From a virus: a stretch of DNA of 64,000 nt. Below, one piece after another: positions 2,294-35,113 of this stretch. Each line of letters starts with the position of its first letter. Within the stretch, counting starts at the first letter, position 1. The stretch lies in the IMG/VR virus record IMGVR_UViG_3300022177_000062, positions 10,593-74,592 of that record; one strand, 5' to 3'. The position numbers and the translations under genes were made by a program. The notes under the pieces were generated by a model. The model made no database searches. It worked only from the letters and a program-made list of their open reading frames with translations, and was not told where the DNA came from.

Positions 2294-3424
2294 ATGGCCA
2301 TAAAGATCGTAAGAGTAAACGGACCCAACGAGATCAAACTGGACGGCACCCTGTACGACCTCGCGAGCGAGCATGGGTGCTCATTGTCGGCCCTGCTTGA
2401 GGAGATGAACCCCACTCATCCCGACGACAAGAGCGGCCTCGATGCGTTCGACAGGCAGTTGCAGCGTCTCGGGATTGTGAGAACAAACGATCCCGAACAC
2501 GGCATCTACGCCGGACAGGGCAAGCTCTTCTTCCAGAGCAATCTTCCCGAATCCAGGATCCTCTTTCCGGAGTACATCAACCGCAGGATCAATGCTGCCA
2601 TGATCGAGCGCGGAGACTTCCTCCAGTACATCGTGTCCGAGTGGGAGTACGGCCGGATGTTCAGGAGCATCTATCTGGACGACACCCAGGCGCAGAGACG
2701 GTCCGGCAAAAGGGCACAGGGTGCCAGGCCGAAAGTCCTGAAAGCCAGCTGGTCCGAAAAGAACGTCAAGATCGAAGACTTCTCCATCGAAATCCAGGCG
2801 GACTACGATTTCATCCAGGAAGTCCAGTTGCCCATCCTTGACGTTATTCTCCAGAGAGCCGCGATGACGCGCGCCGTTGACGAACTCGGAGAAGCCGTTT
2901 CGGTGATCCTGAGCGGCGACGGAACGGGTAAGGAGAGCACCGGGGCACACGTCGACAAACTGTCCGATCTGGGCATCGAGGGGAACACCGGCGTGGAATC
3001 GATGACCTTCAAGTCCTACCTGAAGTGGCAGGCGCAGTTCTACCCCTACAGGATGACAGCCATCATCGGCAGCATCGCCGACCTCGTGGACTTCTACACC
3101 ATGACCACTCCCACGGACACGACCTACGCCCTGCTGACGACCATGCTCACCCGAGCCGCGGTCGGCGGAGAGCCTGTCTTCGTGCAGTCGCCCTTCGGAG
3201 CGGTCAACCTCATTCCCTTCAACGACACGGATGTTCTCTCTGCGGATGATCTTATCGGTGTCGACAAGACGTTCGGCATCATCGGCCACAGGAATACGGG
3301 TGTGGACCTCGTGGAGACCGACAGGCTGATCCGGGAGAAATGGCAAGTCATCGTCATCTCGAACAAAGTGGGCTTCTCAAACCTCTTCCGGGCCGCGACA
3401 AGGAAGCTGGACGGCGACGCGTAG
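2294..3424 (+). CDS. Major capsid protein
   Basis: 376 aa, strong RBS, synteny after decoration gene, HK97-like C-terminal pattern (DLVETDRLIREKWQVIVIS...GF). Confidence 0.75.
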   Translation: MAIKIVRVNGPNEIKLDGTLYDLASEHGCSLSALLEEMNPTHPDDKSGLDAFDRQLQRLGIVRTNDPEHGIYAGQGKLFFQSNLPESRILFPEYINRRINAAMIERGDFLQYIVSEWEYGRMFRSIYLDDTQAQRRSGKRAQGARPKVLKASWSEKNVKIEDFSIEIQADYDFIQEVQLPILDVILQRAAMTRAVDELGEAVSVILSGDGTGKESTGAHVDKLSDLGIEGNTGVESMTFKSYLKWQAQFYPYRMTAIIGSIADLVDFYTMTTPTDTTYALLTTMLTRAAVGGEPVFVQSPFGAVNLIPFNDTDVLSADDLIGVDKTFGIIGHRNTGVDLVETDRLIREKWQVIVISNKVGFSNLFRAATRKLDGDA

Positions 3425-3913: not shown

Positions 3914-3922
3914 GGGGACAAA

Positions 3923-4219
3923 ATGGCTGAAATCAAGACTCCTCTTCGTTCAGGCATACCTTCCGATCTTGTGACAAAGAAGCTGTCAGCGGCCAATGAT
4001 ACGGTGGAACAGGGATTCTACGCCGCAACGACTCTTTCCGCGGTCGATACCGACCTCGCAACAGCAAACATCAAAGCTGGCGTGACAATCTTCGGGATAG
4101 AAGGCAAAACCGAAGTCGTGGACACCACGGAAGCGGGAAACCCCGCGGCGGCAGGCGATATAGCGCTTGGGAAGATCGCCTTTGTAAACGGCGCGAAGAT
4201 TACCGGCACCGCAGAGTAG
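3923..4219 (+). CDS. Head-fibre-like protein
   Basis: NIKAGVTIFGIEG and AGDIALGKIAFVNGAKITGT motifs typical of phage fibre repeats. Confidence 0.5.
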   Translation: MAEIKTPLRSGIPSDLVTKKLSAANDTVEQGFYAATTLSAVDTDLATANIKAGVTIFGIEGKTEVVDTTEAGNPAAAGDIALGKIAFVNGAKITGTAE

Positions 4220-10046: not shown

Positions 10047-10596
10047 ATCCGTTGGCATTCTTGCCGGGGTCCTTGCCATTCTTGCCGGAACCTCAGTGGC
10101 CTACTTTCATTTCAAGAAACCGGATCCTGTGAATATGGCTCAGTACAGTCCCGCTGCCGAGATGCGCGAGACGGTAAAAATCAAGCGTATCGAGGTTCCA
10201 GTGGAACGCATCATCACCATCGAGAAGGAAAAGGTTGTTGAGAAGCTGAGATTGTCCGACGACATCGCAAAGGATCCGGACAAGCAGATTATAGCCACAA
10301 CGAAAGTCCCGGCCTACGAAGGTGATACAGACGTAGTCGCCATCGTGGACACGAAAACCGGTGAAGGGTCGATGGTGGTAAAGCAAGAACCGGTGCCCCT
10401 GTTTGCCTTCCAGAACAAGAAAGAACTTGGTGGCCGTTTCGGATATGTCGCCGGCGAAAGCGGCCTGAAACAGCAGGTCGATTTTTACGGAAGATGGACC
10501 ATATTTCGCGTTGGGCGTGTTCATGTTGGTCTGTACGGAGAGATCAACAGTAAGCCCGAAGGGAAAACAGCGGTGGACGTATCGTACAGGTGGTAA
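10024..10596 (+). CDS. Spanin-like protein (N-terminal TM, C-terminal amphipathic beta strands)
   Basis: TM GILAGVLAILAGTSVAYF; ends VDVSYRW; last gene of the lysis cassette. Confidence 0.45.
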   Translation: MTINLSLKSVGILAGVLAILAGTSVAYFHFKKPDPVNMAQYSPAAEMRETVKIKRIEVPVERIITIEKEKVVEKLRLSDDIAKDPDKQIIATTKVPAYEGDTDVVAIVDTKTGEGSMVVKQEPVPLFAFQNKKELGGRFGYVAGESGLKQQVDFYGRWTIFRVGRVHVGLYGEINSKPEGKTAVDVSYRW

Positions 10597-28598: not shown

Positions 28599-29670
28599 TG
28601 TACAAATCTGGAACTGTGACTGCGTACAGGGAATGGCCGATTTCCTGCCTGACAATTCTGTAGAATGTTGCATCACGTCTATACCGTTTGCGGCCCTCTT
28701 TTCATACAGCCACAAAACCGAAGACATCGGCAATTGCCAGGACTCCGATAACCTCATGTCCTGCCAGTTCTCGGTTCATATCCGGTATGCCTTTGAACAG
28801 CTATTCAGGGTTCTGAAACCGGGAAGCATATTTTGCTGTCATGTCCAACAGCTCCTGACATACAAGGTCCAGCACGGTTTTATGGGAATGCGAGACTTCC
28901 GCGGCGCCGTGATTAGCATGGCGCAGAACCACGGTTTTTTTCCCCACGGCGAAGTAGCCATAGTCAAGAACCCCCGGAACATAGCGAAACGGAACAACCT
29001 GCACTCGCTCATGTTCGTAACCGGGGCGCGCGATGCAAGGGCGTTGTCCCCGGCTATGAACGACTATGTCTTATTCTTCCGCAAGCCTGCCAGCGATGCA
29101 GACCCGGCCGGAAGGGTTCACGGAATCATCGAGACACAGAAGGAGATCATGCTTGTCGAACCATCCCCGATCATCGACTACATTGACCACGGCAATATCA
29201 AGCGGGTTAAGAAGGAGTATCGGGATATCCCGTATAAGATCGTCTCATTTGATGAACGGCTGGGAACCACAGTCACCCGGACCGTGACTGGCGGTGAAGG
29301 TATAAACCGGGACGGATGGTTCACGAAGGAGGATTGGATAAAGTGGGCTCACGGGTGTTGGACCGACATACTGGAAATCGACACTCTGGACGGGTACAAG
29401 TGTGCAAGAGAAAACGAGGAAGAAAAGCATGTCTGTCCTCTTCAACTCGAAGTGATCCGCCGCTGTATCAAGCTCTACACGAACCCAGGCGATACCGTCC
29501 TTGACCCCTTTATGGGTATTGGCAGCGTTGCCTACGTCGCAGTGGAGCAAGGCCGCAACGCCATCGGCTTCGAGCTGAAAGAGTCCTACCACCGCATGGC
29601 CTTGGCCAACATTGAGAAAGCCCAGAATGGTACGGGCCAACAAATATCCCTGTTCTCGGAGGCGATATGA
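28591..29670 (+). CDS. DNA N6-adenine/N4-cytosine methyltransferase (beta class)
   Basis: TSIPF (motif IV) precedes VLDPFMGIGS (motif I). Confidence 0.85.
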   Translation: MSDVQIWNCDCVQGMADFLPDNSVECCITSIPFAALFSYSHKTEDIGNCQDSDNLMSCQFSVHIRYAFEQLFRVLKPGSIFCCHVQQLLTYKVQHGFMGMRDFRGAVISMAQNHGFFPHGEVAIVKNPRNIAKRNNLHSLMFVTGARDARALSPAMNDYVLFFRKPASDADPAGRVHGIIETQKEIMLVEPSPIIDYIDHGNIKRVKKEYRDIPYKIVSFDERLGTTVTRTVTGGEGINRDGWFTKEDWIKWAHGCWTDILEIDTLDGYKCARENEEEKHVCPLQLEVIRRCIKLYTNPGDTVLDPFMGIGSVAYVAVEQGRNAIGFELKESYHRMALANIEKAQNGTGQQISLFSEAI

Positions 29671-30044
29671 TCGTTTACGTCTCATCCCCCTATTCTGCCG
29701 AGACCATGGAACAGGTCACGGCGAACGTGGCCTTTGCCAACGAAATAGGCAAACAGACGCTCGTTGCGGGGCACGTTCCCATTATCCCCCATGTCATGTC
29801 CGCGTTCTGGGACCTTGACGGCCGTCTTCAGAACTTCTCCCATGCTGACTGGATGTTCAAGTATGCCCTGCCCCTTCTGGAGATTGCCGATGCCATTCTC
29901 CTGGCCGGATCATGGGAATCCTCAAAGGGCTGTCTTATTGAGCTTGGCCGGGCAAGGGGCTTGGGTAAGAAAATCTTCTACGGCATGGACGAACTTAAAA
30001 AATACAAGGAGGTAATAGGTGAAGATAACCGGCATACAGCTTAA
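29667..30044 (+). CDS. DUF4406/nucleoside deoxyribosyltransferase-like protein
   Basis: VYVSSPYS...WESSKGCLIE. Confidence 0.6.
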   Translation: MIVYVSSPYSAETMEQVTANVAFANEIGKQTLVAGHVPIIPHVMSAFWDLDGRLQNFSHADWMFKYALPLLEIADAILLAGSWESSKGCLIELGRARGLGKKIFYGMDELKKYKEVIGEDNRHTA

Positions 30045-31569
30045 AAACTTTCTCATCTTCAAGGAACTGAAGCTCGGTGGTGATGATGCTCCCCTGTCAC
30101 CGCACATGAACCTGCTGATGGGCAAAAACAAGAAGGGTAAAACCGACGTCCTGAAGTCGATACCGGCCGGGCTATTCGGCAATCTCGATCCCTCGATGAT
30201 CCGAACCGGCGAAGAGAAGTCGGAGATCATCATTGACCTAGAAGCGTACAAGATCAGGCGCACGATCACCCAGAAGGGAACCAAGGGCCTCAAGGTGACG
30301 AGTACGGACGGGTCAGTCAACACGAGCCTCCAAACCTACATCGACAGCCTCATAGGAATCGCCGACAAGGAAAAAAGGGGCTTCCTGTTCAATCCGATCG
30401 CCCTGGTCCTCTCCGACGATAAAGCCAAATACCTGCGCGACCTCTTCAAGACCACGATGAAGCCCGAGGACCTGAAGGATATCCCCGAGGAATTCACGGA
30501 CGGCATCGACTACACGATGGACGGCATGGACATCATCAATCTCCTGGCCAACGAAAAGACCGGTCTCATCTACCGGAAGCGGGGAGAGCTGAACAAGGCC
30601 GCCGAACAGAAGCTGGCATTGCTGAACGGGAAGCTAGAGGCGATCAAGGGATTCGACGCGAACGCCTATCAACCCGGCGCAGTCGAGGAGCTGTCGAAAC
30701 AGATCGGCATTCTCAGGCAGGAAATCTCAAGTGCCGAAAAGCTACAGGAACTGGAAAAGAAGAACAAGCCGCTCCGGGAAGACCTCGAAAGGAAGATTGC
30801 GAGTGCCGAAGAGCTGTTGAAGGCCCTGAAGGGTGACAAGGAAATAGCTGACGAACGGGTCGTGCTCACCACGGAGATGGACGACATTCGCCGGCAGATC
30901 AGGGAGCTTCAGACGAGGCTTGAAGGAAAAGAAACGGCCCTCAAGGCTCTTGATGACACAAAGAAACAGCGCAAGGACCTCGAAGAGAGCCTGACGAACT
31001 GGCGGGAAACCCTTGAAGCCATCAAGATCAAGGACATGCCCGACATCGAGGAGTTGAACGTTCATCTTCAGGCCAAAGAGGCGGAACACGAAACCGCGCT
31101 GGCCGAAGAAGCAAAGTACGACCTGTGGCTTGAGGCTGAGCAGGACATCCGGCCCGAATACGAGAAGAAGAAGGCCGAAGCCGACAAGCTCACCGATAAC
31201 CTGAAGTACCTGCGGAAAGACCTCGCCACGAAGCTCACGAAGGAAGCCAACATACCCATCGACAACCTGCGTATCGAAGGAAACACCGTCTGGGTCGGCG
31301 ATATCAGCGTGGACAACATGAGCACCAGCGAACAGATGCTCATGGGGCTGGACATGACCAAGCGTCTGAACGCCGGTGCGCCCTTCCAGGTTCTCATTTG
31401 CGACCGTGTCGAATCCCTGGATGACGAGTCCTTTGCCGTTCTGCAACAGTGGGTTATCGAGAACGATTGTCAATTGTTCGCCAGCGCCGTCTATCATCGC
31501 GGTCAGGAGATTCCCGCCGGAGCATTGATAGTTGAGGATGGCACGGTGAGTAAGGCCGTCAACGAGTAA
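30019..31569 (+). CDS. SMC/Rad50-like AAA ATPase
   Basis: Walker A GKNKKGKT, long coiled coil, MSTSEQ signature, ICDRVE Walker B. Confidence 0.8.
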   Translation: MKITGIQLKNFLIFKELKLGGDDAPLSPHMNLLMGKNKKGKTDVLKSIPAGLFGNLDPSMIRTGEEKSEIIIDLEAYKIRRTITQKGTKGLKVTSTDGSVNTSLQTYIDSLIGIADKEKRGFLFNPIALVLSDDKAKYLRDLFKTTMKPEDLKDIPEEFTDGIDYTMDGMDIINLLANEKTGLIYRKRGELNKAAEQKLALLNGKLEAIKGFDANAYQPGAVEELSKQIGILRQEISSAEKLQELEKKNKPLREDLERKIASAEELLKALKGDKEIADERVVLTTEMDDIRRQIRELQTRLEGKETALKALDDTKKQRKDLEESLTNWRETLEAIKIKDMPDIEELNVHLQAKEAEHETALAEEAKYDLWLEAEQDIRPEYEKKKAEADKLTDNLKYLRKDLATKLTKEANIPIDNLRIEGNTVWVGDISVDNMSTSEQMLMGLDMTKRLNAGAPFQVLICDRVESLDDESFAVLQQWVIENDCQLFASAVYHRGQEIPAGALIVEDGTVSKAVNE

Positions 31570-31580
31570 TGATACTGCTC

Positions 31581-31670
31581 GGCTGGCTGGGCGCGGACAG
31601 GAGAGGCGTGGAAAGGAGAGGCGAGGCGCGGACAGGAGAGGCGTGGCGGGGCTAGGCTTGGCAGGCAAGG
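31581..31670 (+). repeat. Pentamer array 1: 15 in-register GG(C/A)NN units plus terminal GGCAGGCAAGG (candidate guide RNA)
   Basis: Intergenic; exact 5-nt phasing at 31585-31659. Confidence 0.85.
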
Positions 31671-31712
31671 AAGTAACACCCCTACGGGGGAAAATACACT
31701 AAGGAGGTCGCA

Positions 31713-32360
31713 ATGGCGACAGAAAAGAAAGCAGTAACAATTTCAGCACCGAAAATCAAAACGGCCGTATTCGAGATCACAGGCGTAGCGCCGCTGGTTA
31801 TCCATCGTTTCAGCGCGAAGACCAAGAACGAAATGAAACTGAAAATGGAAACTGGCAAGGCGGCATCAAGCAAGAAAAACAGAGAGGCCAAGAACACTGA
31901 CGACCTGTACAACGAGGCCCGGTACATCTCGCAGGAAGGTTGGGATGGGCTTCATGCTGGGGCGATCAGGGCCGCTCTTATCTCAGCATGCCGTCTCGTC
32001 GGGTTCAAAATGACCCTTGCCAAGTTGTCTGTGTTCGTCGTTCAGGATGGTTGGGACGCACAGGAACCCCAGATTCCGCTTATCCGCATCTACGGTGACC
32101 CTGTCAAGCAGGAAGACATGGCAAGGGTGGAAACAGGACAGCCGTATGTCACGGTCAGGGCGGCTTACCGGGACTGGAAAGCAAAGGTCAAAATTCGTTT
32201 CGATGAAGACCAGTTCACCATAGACGATATCTACAATCTGCTTTACCGGGTAGGTATGCAGGTCGGTGTCGGAGAGGGAAGACCGGACAGCAAGAAAAGC
32301 GTTGGCATGGGCTGGGGGCTGTTCGAGGTAAACGGAGGTGAGATACATGAAGGCAAATAA
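31713..32360 (+). CDS. RAMP/Cas7-like RNA-binding protein
   Basis: N-terminal FEITGVAPLVIH, central AGAIRAAL, C-terminal glycine loop GVGEGRP...GMGWGLFEV. Confidence 0.65.
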   Translation: MATEKKAVTISAPKIKTAVFEITGVAPLVIHRFSAKTKNEMKLKMETGKAASSKKNREAKNTDDLYNEARYISQEGWDGLHAGAIRAALISACRLVGFKMTLAKLSVFVVQDGWDAQEPQIPLIRIYGDPVKQEDMARVETGQPYVTVRAAYRDWKAKVKIRFDEDQFTIDDIYNLLYRVGMQVGVGEGRPDSKKSVGMGWGLFEVNGGEIHEGK

Positions 32361-32853
32361 CGCTGCAAAACAGATCAAAGAGCCGCTCACCGTATCAGAA
32401 GAACTTTTGTTTCTCAAAGACACGAACGGAGGGCTTCTTGACCCGGCAAAGGTTGTCGATTACGCACGAAACCCCGATACCGCCTTGCACACTCGCTTTG
32501 AATGGGATGATAGCAAGGCGGCGGAAGACTATCGTCTGTGGCAGGCGCGAAAGATCATCAGCCTTGAACTGGTGGTTATCCGCCAAAATATCGGAGAGGT
32601 TGCGCAGATCGTTGTCAACTTGGAAGAAAGAACTAACAAGGACAAACCTGTCAGGGCGTTTGTCTCTCTTAAGCAGGACAGGCGCGGTGACGAAGCCTGC
32701 GGATATCGAAGCATCTATGACGTACTGTCTGACGAGGGCTTGAGGAAGCAGCTACTGGATGAAGCCCGTGGTGATATGCGGATGTTCAAGAAAAAGTACG
32801 ACACGTTGAATGAATTGGCAAAGGTCTTTTCGGCCATGGAAGAGGTGCTGTAA
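32347..32853 (+). CDS. Conserved partner of the RAMP-like protein
   Basis: Overlaps the RAMP-like stop; LDPAKVVDYARNPDTALHTRFEWDDSKAAEDYRLWQAR. Confidence 0.6.
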   Translation: MKANNAAKQIKEPLTVSEELLFLKDTNGGLLDPAKVVDYARNPDTALHTRFEWDDSKAAEDYRLWQARKIISLELVVIRQNIGEVAQIVVNLEERTNKDKPVRAFVSLKQDRRGDEACGYRSIYDVLSDEGLRKQLLDEARGDMRMFKKKYDTLNELAKVFSAMEEVL

Positions 32854-32857
32854 CCAT

Positions 32858-32964
32858 GGCAACACGGCCCGGCTTGGAGTGGCTATGCAGGCAAGGAACG
32901 GCTTGGCACGGCGTGGCTCGGCGAGGCGTGGCGGGGAACGGTACGTCTGGGCGCGGCTAAGCAC
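32858..32964 (+). repeat. Pentamer array 2: 4 units, TGCAGGCAAGG, then a 14-unit in-register run (candidate guide RNA)
   Basis: Intergenic; 5-nt phasing at 32866-32885 and 32890-32959. Confidence 0.85.
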
Positions 32965-32999
32965 AAAACAAGATTAACAGCAAACGGAGATCAAACACT

Positions 33000-33557
33000 A
33001 TGGCTCATAAACACGCAAAACTTATCAGACGGGCATTCGCAAAATGTCCCCTTCTTATCGCCATGTACTCCCGTTTGGACAGCGAGACCTACAAAGGCAT
33101 TAAACGCAAGGGCAAGCTTTCCATCCTTGCGCCCGAGAAGCGACGGGTCTACCAGCACGCAAAGGGGTTGACCGCCCTTCTCGTCATTTGTTCCATCCTC
33201 CTTCTGTCAACGGGGCGTACACACCAGGCAAGAGCACAAAGCCCCGTTGACACCCTTGTTCCCGCAATCATCAAAGTGGAGTCGAACGGAAACCCGCGCG
33301 CAGTGAGCAAGAAAGGGGCAATCGGTCTGATGCAGGTGCGCTGGTGTGTCTGGAAGGACGAGTTGAAGAAAGCAGGCATAGCCAAACACAGGGGCGAACT
33401 ACTGGACCCAACGGTAAACGTACGGGCCGGTAAGTTCGTCCTTACTCACTATCTCAAGAAGCACCGGGGAGATGTCAGGAAAGCCCTGCACAGCTATTCA
33501 GGCGGGGCGAAGGGGTATTACAGGAAGGTAATGGAGGTGCACAATGATAAGCCTTAA
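33000..33557 (+). CDS. SLT-family lytic transglycosylase
   Basis: AIIKVESNGNPRAVSKKGAIGLMQV. Confidence 0.85.
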   Translation: MAHKHAKLIRRAFAKCPLLIAMYSRLDSETYKGIKRKGKLSILAPEKRRVYQHAKGLTALLVICSILLLSTGRTHQARAQSPVDTLVPAIIKVESNGNPRAVSKKGAIGLMQVRWCVWKDELKKAGIAKHRGELLDPTVNVRAGKFVLTHYLKKHRGDVRKALHSYSGGAKGYYRKVMEVHNDKP

Positions 33558-33602
33558 CAGGTCTCTTCCCGATGACGACGAGGAAGAGGAGGAGAGAGCA
33601 AG

Positions 33603-33788
33603 ATGAGCCACGGGACAAGAATGAAGCTATCGGGTATTGCGCTGGTGCTATTCACCCTCTTCTCTATCGGCCTGCTCTACAGATTGGGCTATCAGGACGG
33701 ATGGAACGACCGGGCGAAACGGGACAGTGGCACGTCGTTAACATATCGTAGCACTGTGGTCCTCGCTGGTCCGGGGGTGAACAGATGA
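33603..33788 (+). CDS. Small membrane protein
   Basis: One TM segment, GYQDGW. Confidence 0.5.
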   Translation: MSHGTRMKLSGIALVLFTLFSIGLLYRLGYQDGWNDRAKRDSGTSLTYRSTVVLAGPGVNR

Positions 33789-35113
33789 TTGCCGATGTCA
33801 TTATCAAGGCGGCTGGTATGGAACCGCCCGAATCGCAGCCCTATTTCCCCCGGCCAAGCGGTGCCGGACCGGAAAGGTGCATGAGACAGATGGTCTACCA
33901 TGCTCTCGGGATCGCCCCGGATCAGAAGCGGAATGATCGCTTCATCCTGGTGCTCGATGATTCAAGCATTCACGAAACGCTCACCGAGGACTGGCTGAAC
34001 AAGACGGTCTTTCAGCTCCACAGTCAGCAAATGGCGGTCAACCTCGACTTAACAGACATGTTCCCGGATGCCAGGGAGTGGATACCGGAAAGAATCTGTG
34101 AGACCTGCGCCAAGCTCGTGGAGAGCGGAGCCCTGCAACCGGGTAGCGAGATTATTCCGGCCGGTATCATTCATGGTCACATCGACGGCATCGTCACGGA
34201 CATGATGTTCGTGGATACCCACTACGAGCACAAGGGCCTCAATCATTTCACGTTCGAGAAAATCTGGAATAGCGAAGCCTTTCCGCAGGACTATATCACG
34301 CAATGCTGCATCTACCAGCGCGGTATCAGGGTCAATCTCAATCCGGACATAACCCGTAGCGTTCTGTTAATCAAGAACAAGAACACCGCGGCGTACATGG
34401 ATTTCCTCATCGAGTATGATCTTGAAACCGATACCGCCTATATCATCGAGATGTCCCGGTCCAGCGGCGAAAAGGTCGTGGGAAGCCGGGAAGAACCGAT
34501 CTTCGTCATGGAAAACATCGTAAGAAACGCCATGGCCAAGTTCAGGGAAGTCTATATCCACGTTCAGAACGGGACCTTCCCGGACCGGCAGTATGAACTT
34601 TCCGACTGGCAGTGTCAGTATTGCCCATGGGGAAATATCGAAGGCACATGCTGGCAGGGATTCGAGGAAGAGTATAACGCCCTTGGAGCGAACGGCGTCC
34701 TCGACGGGATAGAGGACATACTTGCAAAATACATTCAGGCCAACGCGGATCTCGGGACCAAGAGGAATCCCGGCTTTGAACAGGAATACATCGACCTCAA
34801 GGGCAAGATCATCGCGCTGTTCGATCAGGCCAACGAATTCCTGCGAACCAACCTGCCGGAACTCTGTGCCTATTACCTCGAAACAAAGGGCCACATAGAC
34901 GCCCTTGAAGGCGAGAAGGAAGCGGTCAAAACGGAAGTGCGCGACCTTCTCCGGGAGAACCGTGTGCGTAAGGCCACGGCAGGTCCCTATGTTGTCGATG
35001 ATCGCCTTGATAAGTATTCATACCTGAACCGGGACAAACTTGATCCTGCCGCCGTCATACAGGCCACAGAGCAGCGTTTCAAACGTGTCCTGACCATCAG
35101 GAGACCAAAATAA
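33785..35113 (+). CDS. Cas4/RecB-like PD-(D/E)XK exonuclease
   Basis: RPS...C.RQ..Y, GHIDG, EHK, Q...Y, CQYCPW...C. Confidence 0.75.
   Translation: MIADVIIKAAGMEPPESQPYFPRPSGAGPERCMRQMVYHALGIAPDQKRNDRFILVLDDSSIHETLTEDWLNKTVFQLHSQQMAVNLDLTDMFPDAREWIPERICETCAKLVESGALQPGSEIIPAGIIHGHIDGIVTDMMFVDTHYEHKGLNHFTFEKIWNSEAFPQDYITQCCIYQRGIRVNLNPDITRSVLLIKNKNTAAYMDFLIEYDLETDTAYIIEMSRSSGEKVVGSREEPIFVMENIVRNAMAKFREVYIHVQNGTFPDRQYELSDWQCQYCPWGNIEGTCWQGFEEEYNALGANGVLDGIEDILAKYIQANADLGTKRNPGFEQEYIDLKGKIIALFDQANEFLRTNLPELCAYYLETKGHIDALEGEKEAVKTEVRDLLRENRVRKATAGPYVVDDRLDKYSYLNRDKLDPAAVIQATEQRFKRVLTIRRPK

Follow-up and report, generated by a model that had tools for sequence, protein, structure and literature searches.

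Background

VIPR, described in 2026, is a CRISPR-related system for RNA-guided silencing of DNA (bioRxiv 10.64898/2026.04.26.720920). Its parts are a small RAMP protein (Vipr), an accessory gene (vap) and vrRNAs of 9-16 YNNGG repeats, with one Vipr protomer per repeat, and the NN dinucleotides of the repeats pair with double-stranded DNA, skipping every third base of the target (10.64898/2026.04.26.720920). The RAMP fold of Vipr comprises an RRM core, a G-loop and a thumb. In the VIPR preprint, small-RNA sequencing confirmed the ribozyme-interspersed and the single-vrRNA architectures, the architecture termed 'staggered' not being among them. Staggered arrays are presented there (10.64898/2026.04.26.720920, fig. 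S18) as contiguous GGY-NN guides with no tail between them, located beside vipr and vap in phage, where neighbouring guides overlap by one nucleotide and the end of one guide marks the start of the next.

The locus described here resembles the staggered arrays in these respects. It lies in a stretch of 64,000 nucleotides (hereafter the window) taken from a viral contig of 76.6 kb (IMG/VR record IMGVR_UViG_3300022177_000062, positions 10,593 to 74,592), where two arrays of five-nucleotide units bracket two overlapping genes, vipr and a vap-like gene, within a phage replication/recombination module. A preliminary description of the second array, made from the window sequence alone, had proposed two guide units separated by a handle motif analogous to that of CRISPR. 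We conclude that array 2 very probably serves a phage-borne VIPR system of the staggered type as its downstream vrRNA array, where a boundary parts a five-unit leader from one guide of 14 units. VIPR and its staggered architecture are already published, and the locus is a further example of them and not a new analogue of CRISPR.

Methods

Relatives of the locus were fetched with the 215-aa protein from IMG/VR, GTDB genomes and JGI metagenomes, which yielded 89 loci. With the window added, the 90 sequences contain 99 arrays; the unit statistics refer to the 94 unique arrays and their 5068 units. The register of the units in array 2 was established by reading positions 32856-32990 in 5-nt steps and with a dynamic-programming segmenter. 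A target was defined as a match of the NN letters under a rule that skips 1 nt, and targets were sought by seeded exact scans of IMG/VR and of GTDB genomes.

Results

The vipr gene and its neighbourhood

The features of the locus are as follows (positions are those of the window).

31578-31670, + strand: array 1, the putative upstream vrRNA array, ending 43 nt before the vipr start
31713-32360, + strand: vipr, encoding a 215-aa Cas7-like RAMP protein
32347-32853, + strand: vap-like accessory gene, 168 aa from ATG (171 aa from GTG at 32338), overlapping the end of vipr
32863-32887, + strand: array 2, five units before the boundary, CACGG CCCGG CTTGG AGTGG CTATG (NN = AC CC TT GT TA)
32888-32891, + strand: array 2, 4-nt unit CAGG, at which the register moves by one base
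32887-32896, + strand: array 2, boundary signature G-CAGG-C-AA-GG, motif GCAGGCAAGG
32892-32961, + strand: array 2, predicted guide (vrRNA variable region), 14 units

The AF2 model of the vipr product has a mean pLDDT of 94.5, and almost all of the best 50 rows of a Foldseek search against the PDB are Cas7-family or other RAMP chains of CRISPR complexes (probability 1.00 each), the Cas7-type matches including type III Csm3 and Cmr4, type VII and Cas7-11. A profile built from 78 family members matches PDB entry 36pp, 'SUSP1 Vipr protein', with E = 2.4e-6 (3.3e-5 for a profile of 8 members), the similarity being remote and confined mainly to the C-terminal 50 residues. Residues H31, R149 and R190 of the window Vipr align with H17, R138 and R179 of SUSP1, which are named as the contacts to G1, G2 and Y3 (10.64898/2026.04.26.720927), and SUSP1 D177 and W178 align with E188 and G189. 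On account of the RAMP fold, the profile match to SUSP1 Vipr and the three aligned contacts we identify the locus as a VIPR system. Candidate readings of the arrays as a TRAP-like ring-protein RNA site, a CsrA sponge, Chi-like sites or antisense Rho sites were dropped because the neighbouring gene is a Vipr homologue. The family is very large, with 4680 proteins in one search and 2170 cluster representatives in another, and about 27 mycobacteriophage and 77 Escherichia phage records match it.

A homologue of the partner gene was detected in 75 of the 90 loci and directly follows vipr where it could be placed. Its product corresponds to PHROG 15946, of unknown function, and has no Pfam match. 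In the AF2 model, which is of moderate confidence (pLDDT 75.5), the N-terminal half is helical, the middle is poorly predicted and the C-terminal part forms one long helix; no significant fold match was found for it in the PDB, where only weak winged-helix-like rows were returned.

The surrounding module encodes a helicase, a DNA methylase, a nucleoside deoxyribosyltransferase-like protein, an AAA ATPase, an SLT lysin and an RDF-like protein. Near the arrays no cas gene other than the RAMP gene was found, and no cas1 or cas2. No promoter-like site was predicted in 29500-34000 and no terminator-like site beside either array; the arrays are therefore probably transcribed within the operon. Beyond the window, the last 200 bases of the contig resemble, by eye from the raw sequence, the C-terminus of glyceraldehyde-3-phosphate dehydrogenase, a sign, if correct, of either a junction between prophage and host or an auxiliary metabolic gene.

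Layout of the two arrays

Array 2 is a run of 5-nt YNNGG (= GGY-NN) units at 32863-32961 on the + strand. GG is present in 11-12 of 12 consecutive 5-nt phases, far more than expected by chance, as 20 shuffles of the window never gave more than 6-8. The two arrays show no period other than 5 nt and its multiples (10, 15 and 20 nt). Neither the window nor the whole 76.6-kb contig contains further such arrays beyond these two, both of which are on the + strand; none was found on the - strand of either. Re-parsing returned the same units, the same NN letters and the same one-base shift of register as the preliminary description, and an exact-match search confirmed its coordinates for GCAGGCAAGG and for a 14-mer common to the two arrays. 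GCAGGCAAGG has two exact matches in the window, at 31661-31670 and 32887-32896, both on the + strand.

The letters of the array 2 guide are NN = AA AC TT AC GT TC GA GT GG AC AC TG GC TA. Units 11 and 14 are degenerate (TACGT and CTAAG), the third base is A in 3 of the 14 units, and past 32961 the repeat decays (CACAA...). Its 14 units place the guide among the longest of the usual guide lengths in the family, most of which span 7-14 units with a median of 10. Unlike most arrays of the relatives, it has no closing GCAGG, and it may be a terminal and partly decayed guide, or have its 3' end formed in some other manner.

Array 1 consists of CTCGG, a 4-nt unit CTGG (31583-31586), 15 five-nucleotide units (31587-31661), a closing CAGG (31662-31665) and CAAGG. 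Its 5' boundary is thus CTGG and not CAGG, and it closes with GG-CAGG, as most arrays do, followed here by one more unit. In 6 of the 15 units A takes the place of the pyrimidine at the third base. Inside the guide the series CGCGG ACAGG AGAGG CGTGG is present twice, seven units apart. A small hairpin, CCCC-TAC-GGGG (31679-31689), follows array 1 and precedes the ribosome-binding site of vipr; it is not conserved at the equivalent place in the relatives.

The common 14-mer, GAGGCGTGGCGGGG, is identical at 31638-31651 in array 1 and at 32923-32936 in array 2 and amounts to three consecutive units. Its occurrence in both arrays has P = 0.048 when the order of units is shuffled and P = 0.026 when the variable columns are shuffled, and it is only marginally unusual because GG is constant and C is frequent in the units. 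The proposal that the arrays exchange segments had this 14-mer as its basis and, with significance as marginal as this (P about 0.03-0.05), we do not retain it.

Arrays of the relatives

All 99 arrays of the family are on the strand of the gene and none is on the other strand. Nearly all of them, about 90, are close to the genes, no more than about 130 nt ahead of vipr or behind either the partner gene or vipr. They contain 6-208 units, the two arrays of the window (19 units each) being among the shortest. Throughout the family GG is found in 87-89% of units, the NN letters are close to uniform, and the third base is C in 53%, T in 25% and A in 19%, the last figure being a mild departure from a strict Y.

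The closest relatives, L010 and L011, whose Vipr is 98% identical, have seven guides upstream of vipr where the window has one, and downstream of vap they have no array but only a GCTATGGCAGGG remnant, from which it follows that array content turns over quickly. At the nucleotide level L010/L011 match the window with 92% identity, but only up to about 150 nt inside vap; their vap has an identity of just 66%. The arrays of L026 (1076-1502) and L012 (1989-2351) have several guides in common in the same order, and they differ near the leader, where whole guides are inserted, and in one guide that is tandemly duplicated; the breakpoints coincide with CAGG. These differences are CRISPR-like array dynamics, although adaptation genes are absent.

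Homologues of the Vipr are also present in two described phages. Cyanophage Cy-LDV1 (BK059895.1, locus L112) carries a Vipr homologue of 52% identity, g34, and staggered arrays at 3134-3319 and 3921-4077 that flank g33 and both end in GG-CAGG-CAA. In Mycobacterium phage Brocalys (NC_031262.1, locus L113) a CAGG-punctuated array of about 48 units (2126-2362) precedes gp45, a Vipr homologue of 33% identity annotated as hypothetical. The same CAGG punctuation adjoins the Vipr homologues in both phages. The gp45 coding sequence starts in the last units of the array and its N-terminus is about 45 aa longer than those of its homologues; the start may have been mis-called.

The family-wide comparison bears on the possibility that the array acts as an element of the DNA itself, whether as a former of G-quadruplexes or R-loops, an iteron or origin, or a set of protein-binding repeats, and not as an RNA guide. 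A (GGNNN)n sequence could form two-tetrad quadruplexes, and the arrays do sit in a replication/recombination module. We nevertheless consider this very improbable, as the arrays strictly accompany a RAMP gene, a homologue of whose product was solved in complex with just such RNA, their strand bias is absolute (99 to 0), and the NN letters are hypervariable with turnover of whole guides. Such variability and turnover fit a guide rather than a structural repeat.

Two small open reading frames of 28 and 34 aa (31569-31655 and 32856-32960) lie wholly inside the arrays, with starts tightly coupled to the upstream genes. That the stretch of array 2 instead encodes the 34-aa peptide (ATG at 32856, stop at 32960), its periodicity being incidental, seems to us extremely improbable. 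A Shine-Dalgarno-like GAGGTG stands upstream and the ATG comes close behind the vap stop, and the frame is open, but G-rich sequence is naturally poor in stops; both frames are open because the G-rich repeats have no stop codons. A 5-nt period is incompatible with codons, and the relatives have no conserved start before the leader, many frame-breaking 4-nt units, and arrays of anything from 6 to 208 units. Neither frame is conserved in the relatives. The annotation is corrected in that the two array ORFs are artefacts and the 215-aa 'hypothetical protein' is Vipr.

The CAGG boundary

In the 94 unique arrays about 500 units deviate from the 5-nt length, and 399 of these are exactly CAGG. The median distance from one CAGG to the next is 10 units (interquartile range 9-11). 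Of the gaps, 87% measure 7-14 units, compared with 27% under random placement (P about 1e-110), and gaps of six units or fewer number 14 of 310 where random placement would give 44%. This spacing bears on the explanation that the one-base shift is a functionless deletion which arose by chance within one guide. One event in one array is, on its own, indistinguishable from a mutation; the recurrence of CAGG 399 times at regular spacing in the relatives, together with a leader plus CAGG that precedes differing guides, makes that explanation as remote as the peptide one.

A logo of 382 boundary contexts shows an invariant G before CAGG, preceded by a relaxed position (68% G, 16% T). CAGG is followed by C in 68%, and, beyond two variable letters, the next GG is present at 98% and 92%, above the level of ordinary GG (87-89%). 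The conserved signature is consequently (G/t)G-CAGG-y-NN-GG, of the same extent as GCAGGCAAGG, in which AA is a pair of guide letters. In the upstream register the last unit reads GGC-AG, and the G at its end doubles as the opening G of the GG-Y-NN unit that follows. The junctions are of the form GGCAG/G, at which guides abut with an overlap of one nucleotide, as in the staggered architecture. GG-CAGG also closes most arrays, often with one more unit; CAA after such terminal boundaries is only mildly enriched (8/30 vs 31/306) and was not counted in the signal.

The preliminary description had taken the motif for a processing or boundary signal, to be abandoned if homologous arrays did not conserve it. 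They do conserve it, and the boundary half of that proposal stands. The AA does not belong to the handle, given that CAAGG follows CAGG in just 45 of the 399 cases. Comparison of the arrays thus supports GCAGG followed by y-NN-GG as the guide boundary of the clade to which the window Vipr belongs.

A hairpin presenting GCAGG in its loop was considered, as array 1 could form CUUG/CAAG, and was rejected since the flanking units do not covary over the 382 boundaries (z -1.5 to +1.4). RNA folding of either array gave no signal beyond shuffles (z -1.2 and +1.1). It is thus likely that the boundary is recognized as single-stranded sequence. An Rfam search at a permissive threshold gave no ribozyme and nothing else of relevance, and blastn against GenBank phages gave no match.

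Leader or guide before the boundary

In relatives whose Vipr is 79-89% identical, the downstream arrays open with a leader CACGG .. CTTGG CGTGG CT(A/G/T)(T/C)G CAGG. The form CACGG .. CTTGG CGTGG CTATG followed by CAGG was found in L023, L029, L021, L008, L002 and L026/L012, and the guides after it are unrelated. The five units at 32863-32887 are read as this leader and not as a guide because they are fewer than in normal guides and because their nominally variable letters (..TT GT TA) are conserved. Array 2 is accordingly predicted to carry one guide, of 14 units.

The preliminary description had instead seen two functional guides in array 2, a short one (NN = CC TT GT TA) and a long one, parted by the handle. 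The boundary between them is real, whereas the supposed first guide coincides with a conserved leader that stands before unrelated guides. Some features do fit a short guide: the five units keep the YNNGG form and end in the canonical GCAGG as guides do, and a few CAGG-CAGG gaps of 1-4 units exist in the relatives (14/310). Yet five units fall below the family range for guides (7-14), and their variable letters are conserved across relatives whose true guides differ. A guide of five units with the target ACnCCnTTnGTnTA would specify 10 bases, for which a chance match is expected about once per million positions, and within the 76.6-kb contig itself the pattern reaches 9/10, the same as shuffled controls, and thus has little specificity. 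We judge a second functional guide to be improbable and retain the reading as a leader followed by a single guide.

Target searches

The gapped search that had been proposed turns out to be equivalent to the published targeting rule of skipping 1 nt; none of the scans made in this form found a target for either guide. For the guide of array 2 the seeds gave 0, 0 and 21 matches in IMG/VR, none of the 21 extending beyond chance (best 22/28), and in GTDB genomes one seed gave a single match (a Poribacteria MAG, 23/28), where about one is expected by chance, and the second seed none. Both seeds of the array 1 guide had 0 matches in IMG/VR. The full pattern with up to 3 mismatches was absent from five related phage records. 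When 230 guides of the family were compared with all fetched DNA (530 kb), they performed no better than shuffled guides. Self-matches in the contig of the window itself were also at the level of shuffled guides, in line with the VIPR preprint, according to which vrRNAs do not self-target (10.64898/2026.04.26.720920).

Discussion

Following the VIPR preprints, the + strand of the arrays would be transcribed with the surrounding operon, and one 215-aa Vipr protomer would occupy each 5-nt unit, gripping GG-pyrimidine and presenting the two variable letters. Taken together, the variable letters would recognize a target in double-stranded DNA, leaving out one base between each dinucleotide and the next, the mature RNA would end at the boundary, and the outcome would be the silencing of a rival mobile element. 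To this scheme we add a suggestion of our own concerning the boundary. As GGC-AG and the next GG-Y-NN share one G, the register slips by one base; the protein filament could then not continue in phase, and the ends of the guide would be delimited in this way; the RNA might also be trimmed or cleaved at the GGCAGG slip.

A stronger form of this suggestion is that GCAGG-y-NN-GG is a sequence-specific processing or filament-stop signal read by Vipr, in a Cas6-like manner, or by a partner, and that the five-unit leader is a dedicated entry or nucleation element for maturation of the array. We hold it only tentatively and think it rather unlikely, and the same grade applies to the accompanying suggestion of a very large, tail-less clade with this signal that would span mycobacteriophages, cyanophages and the prophage of the window. 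If it were true, maturation would take a route distinct from the tail and pseudoknot of SUSP1.

VIPR is a newly described, minimal form of RNA-guided DNA recognition, to which the locus of the window adds a natural example. What the comparison contributes is a quantitative grammar for tail-less arrays of the staggered class. It comprises a boundary signature of 11 nt, guides that are about 10 units long, a conserved leader, and turnover of whole guides. Such a grammar should permit automatic splitting of staggered arrays into guides and the prediction of targets. We regard the grammar of the boundary, the leader and the turnover at the level of guides as useful detail and not as a new kind of system.

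Comparison with known systems

A characterized point of reference is the type II VIPR of Escherichia phage SUSP1 and of a Pseudomonas fulva prophage, which, like the window, has a small RAMP protein with H/R/R contacts to GGY (10.64898/2026.04.26.720920; 10.64898/2026.04.26.720927). SUSP1-type VIPR also shares the pentamers with variable NN, the arrays on both sides and the two-gene phage locus (10.64898/2026.04.26.720920). The differences concern the tail and the protein. Each SUSP1 vrRNA ends in a conserved pseudoknot tail of about 40 nt (10.64898/2026.04.26.720920), whereas the guides of the window have no tail, and the sequence 3' of the arrays is not conserved among the relatives. The third base fits a strict pyrimidine pocket in SUSP1 (10.64898/2026.04.26.720927) while the units of the window tolerate A, and W178 of SUSP1 is replaced by glycine in the window Vipr. 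From the published staggered arrays, which have consecutive guides, array 2 of the window differs in its single guide and in the missing closing boundary.

As with the Cas7 backbones of CRISPR Class 1, the guide RNA of the VIPR locus would be covered by a filament of RAMP protomers and have its bases flipped out at regular intervals, and the arrays of the window family resemble CRISPR arrays in that constant punctuation alternates with variable guides and whole guides are gained and lost. CRISPR, however, has direct repeats of about 20-50 nt, of which the window arrays have none, their punctuation measuring about 5-11 nt, and the 6-nt period of Class 1 Cas7 is replaced in the window arrays by a period of 5 nt and a non-contiguous code.
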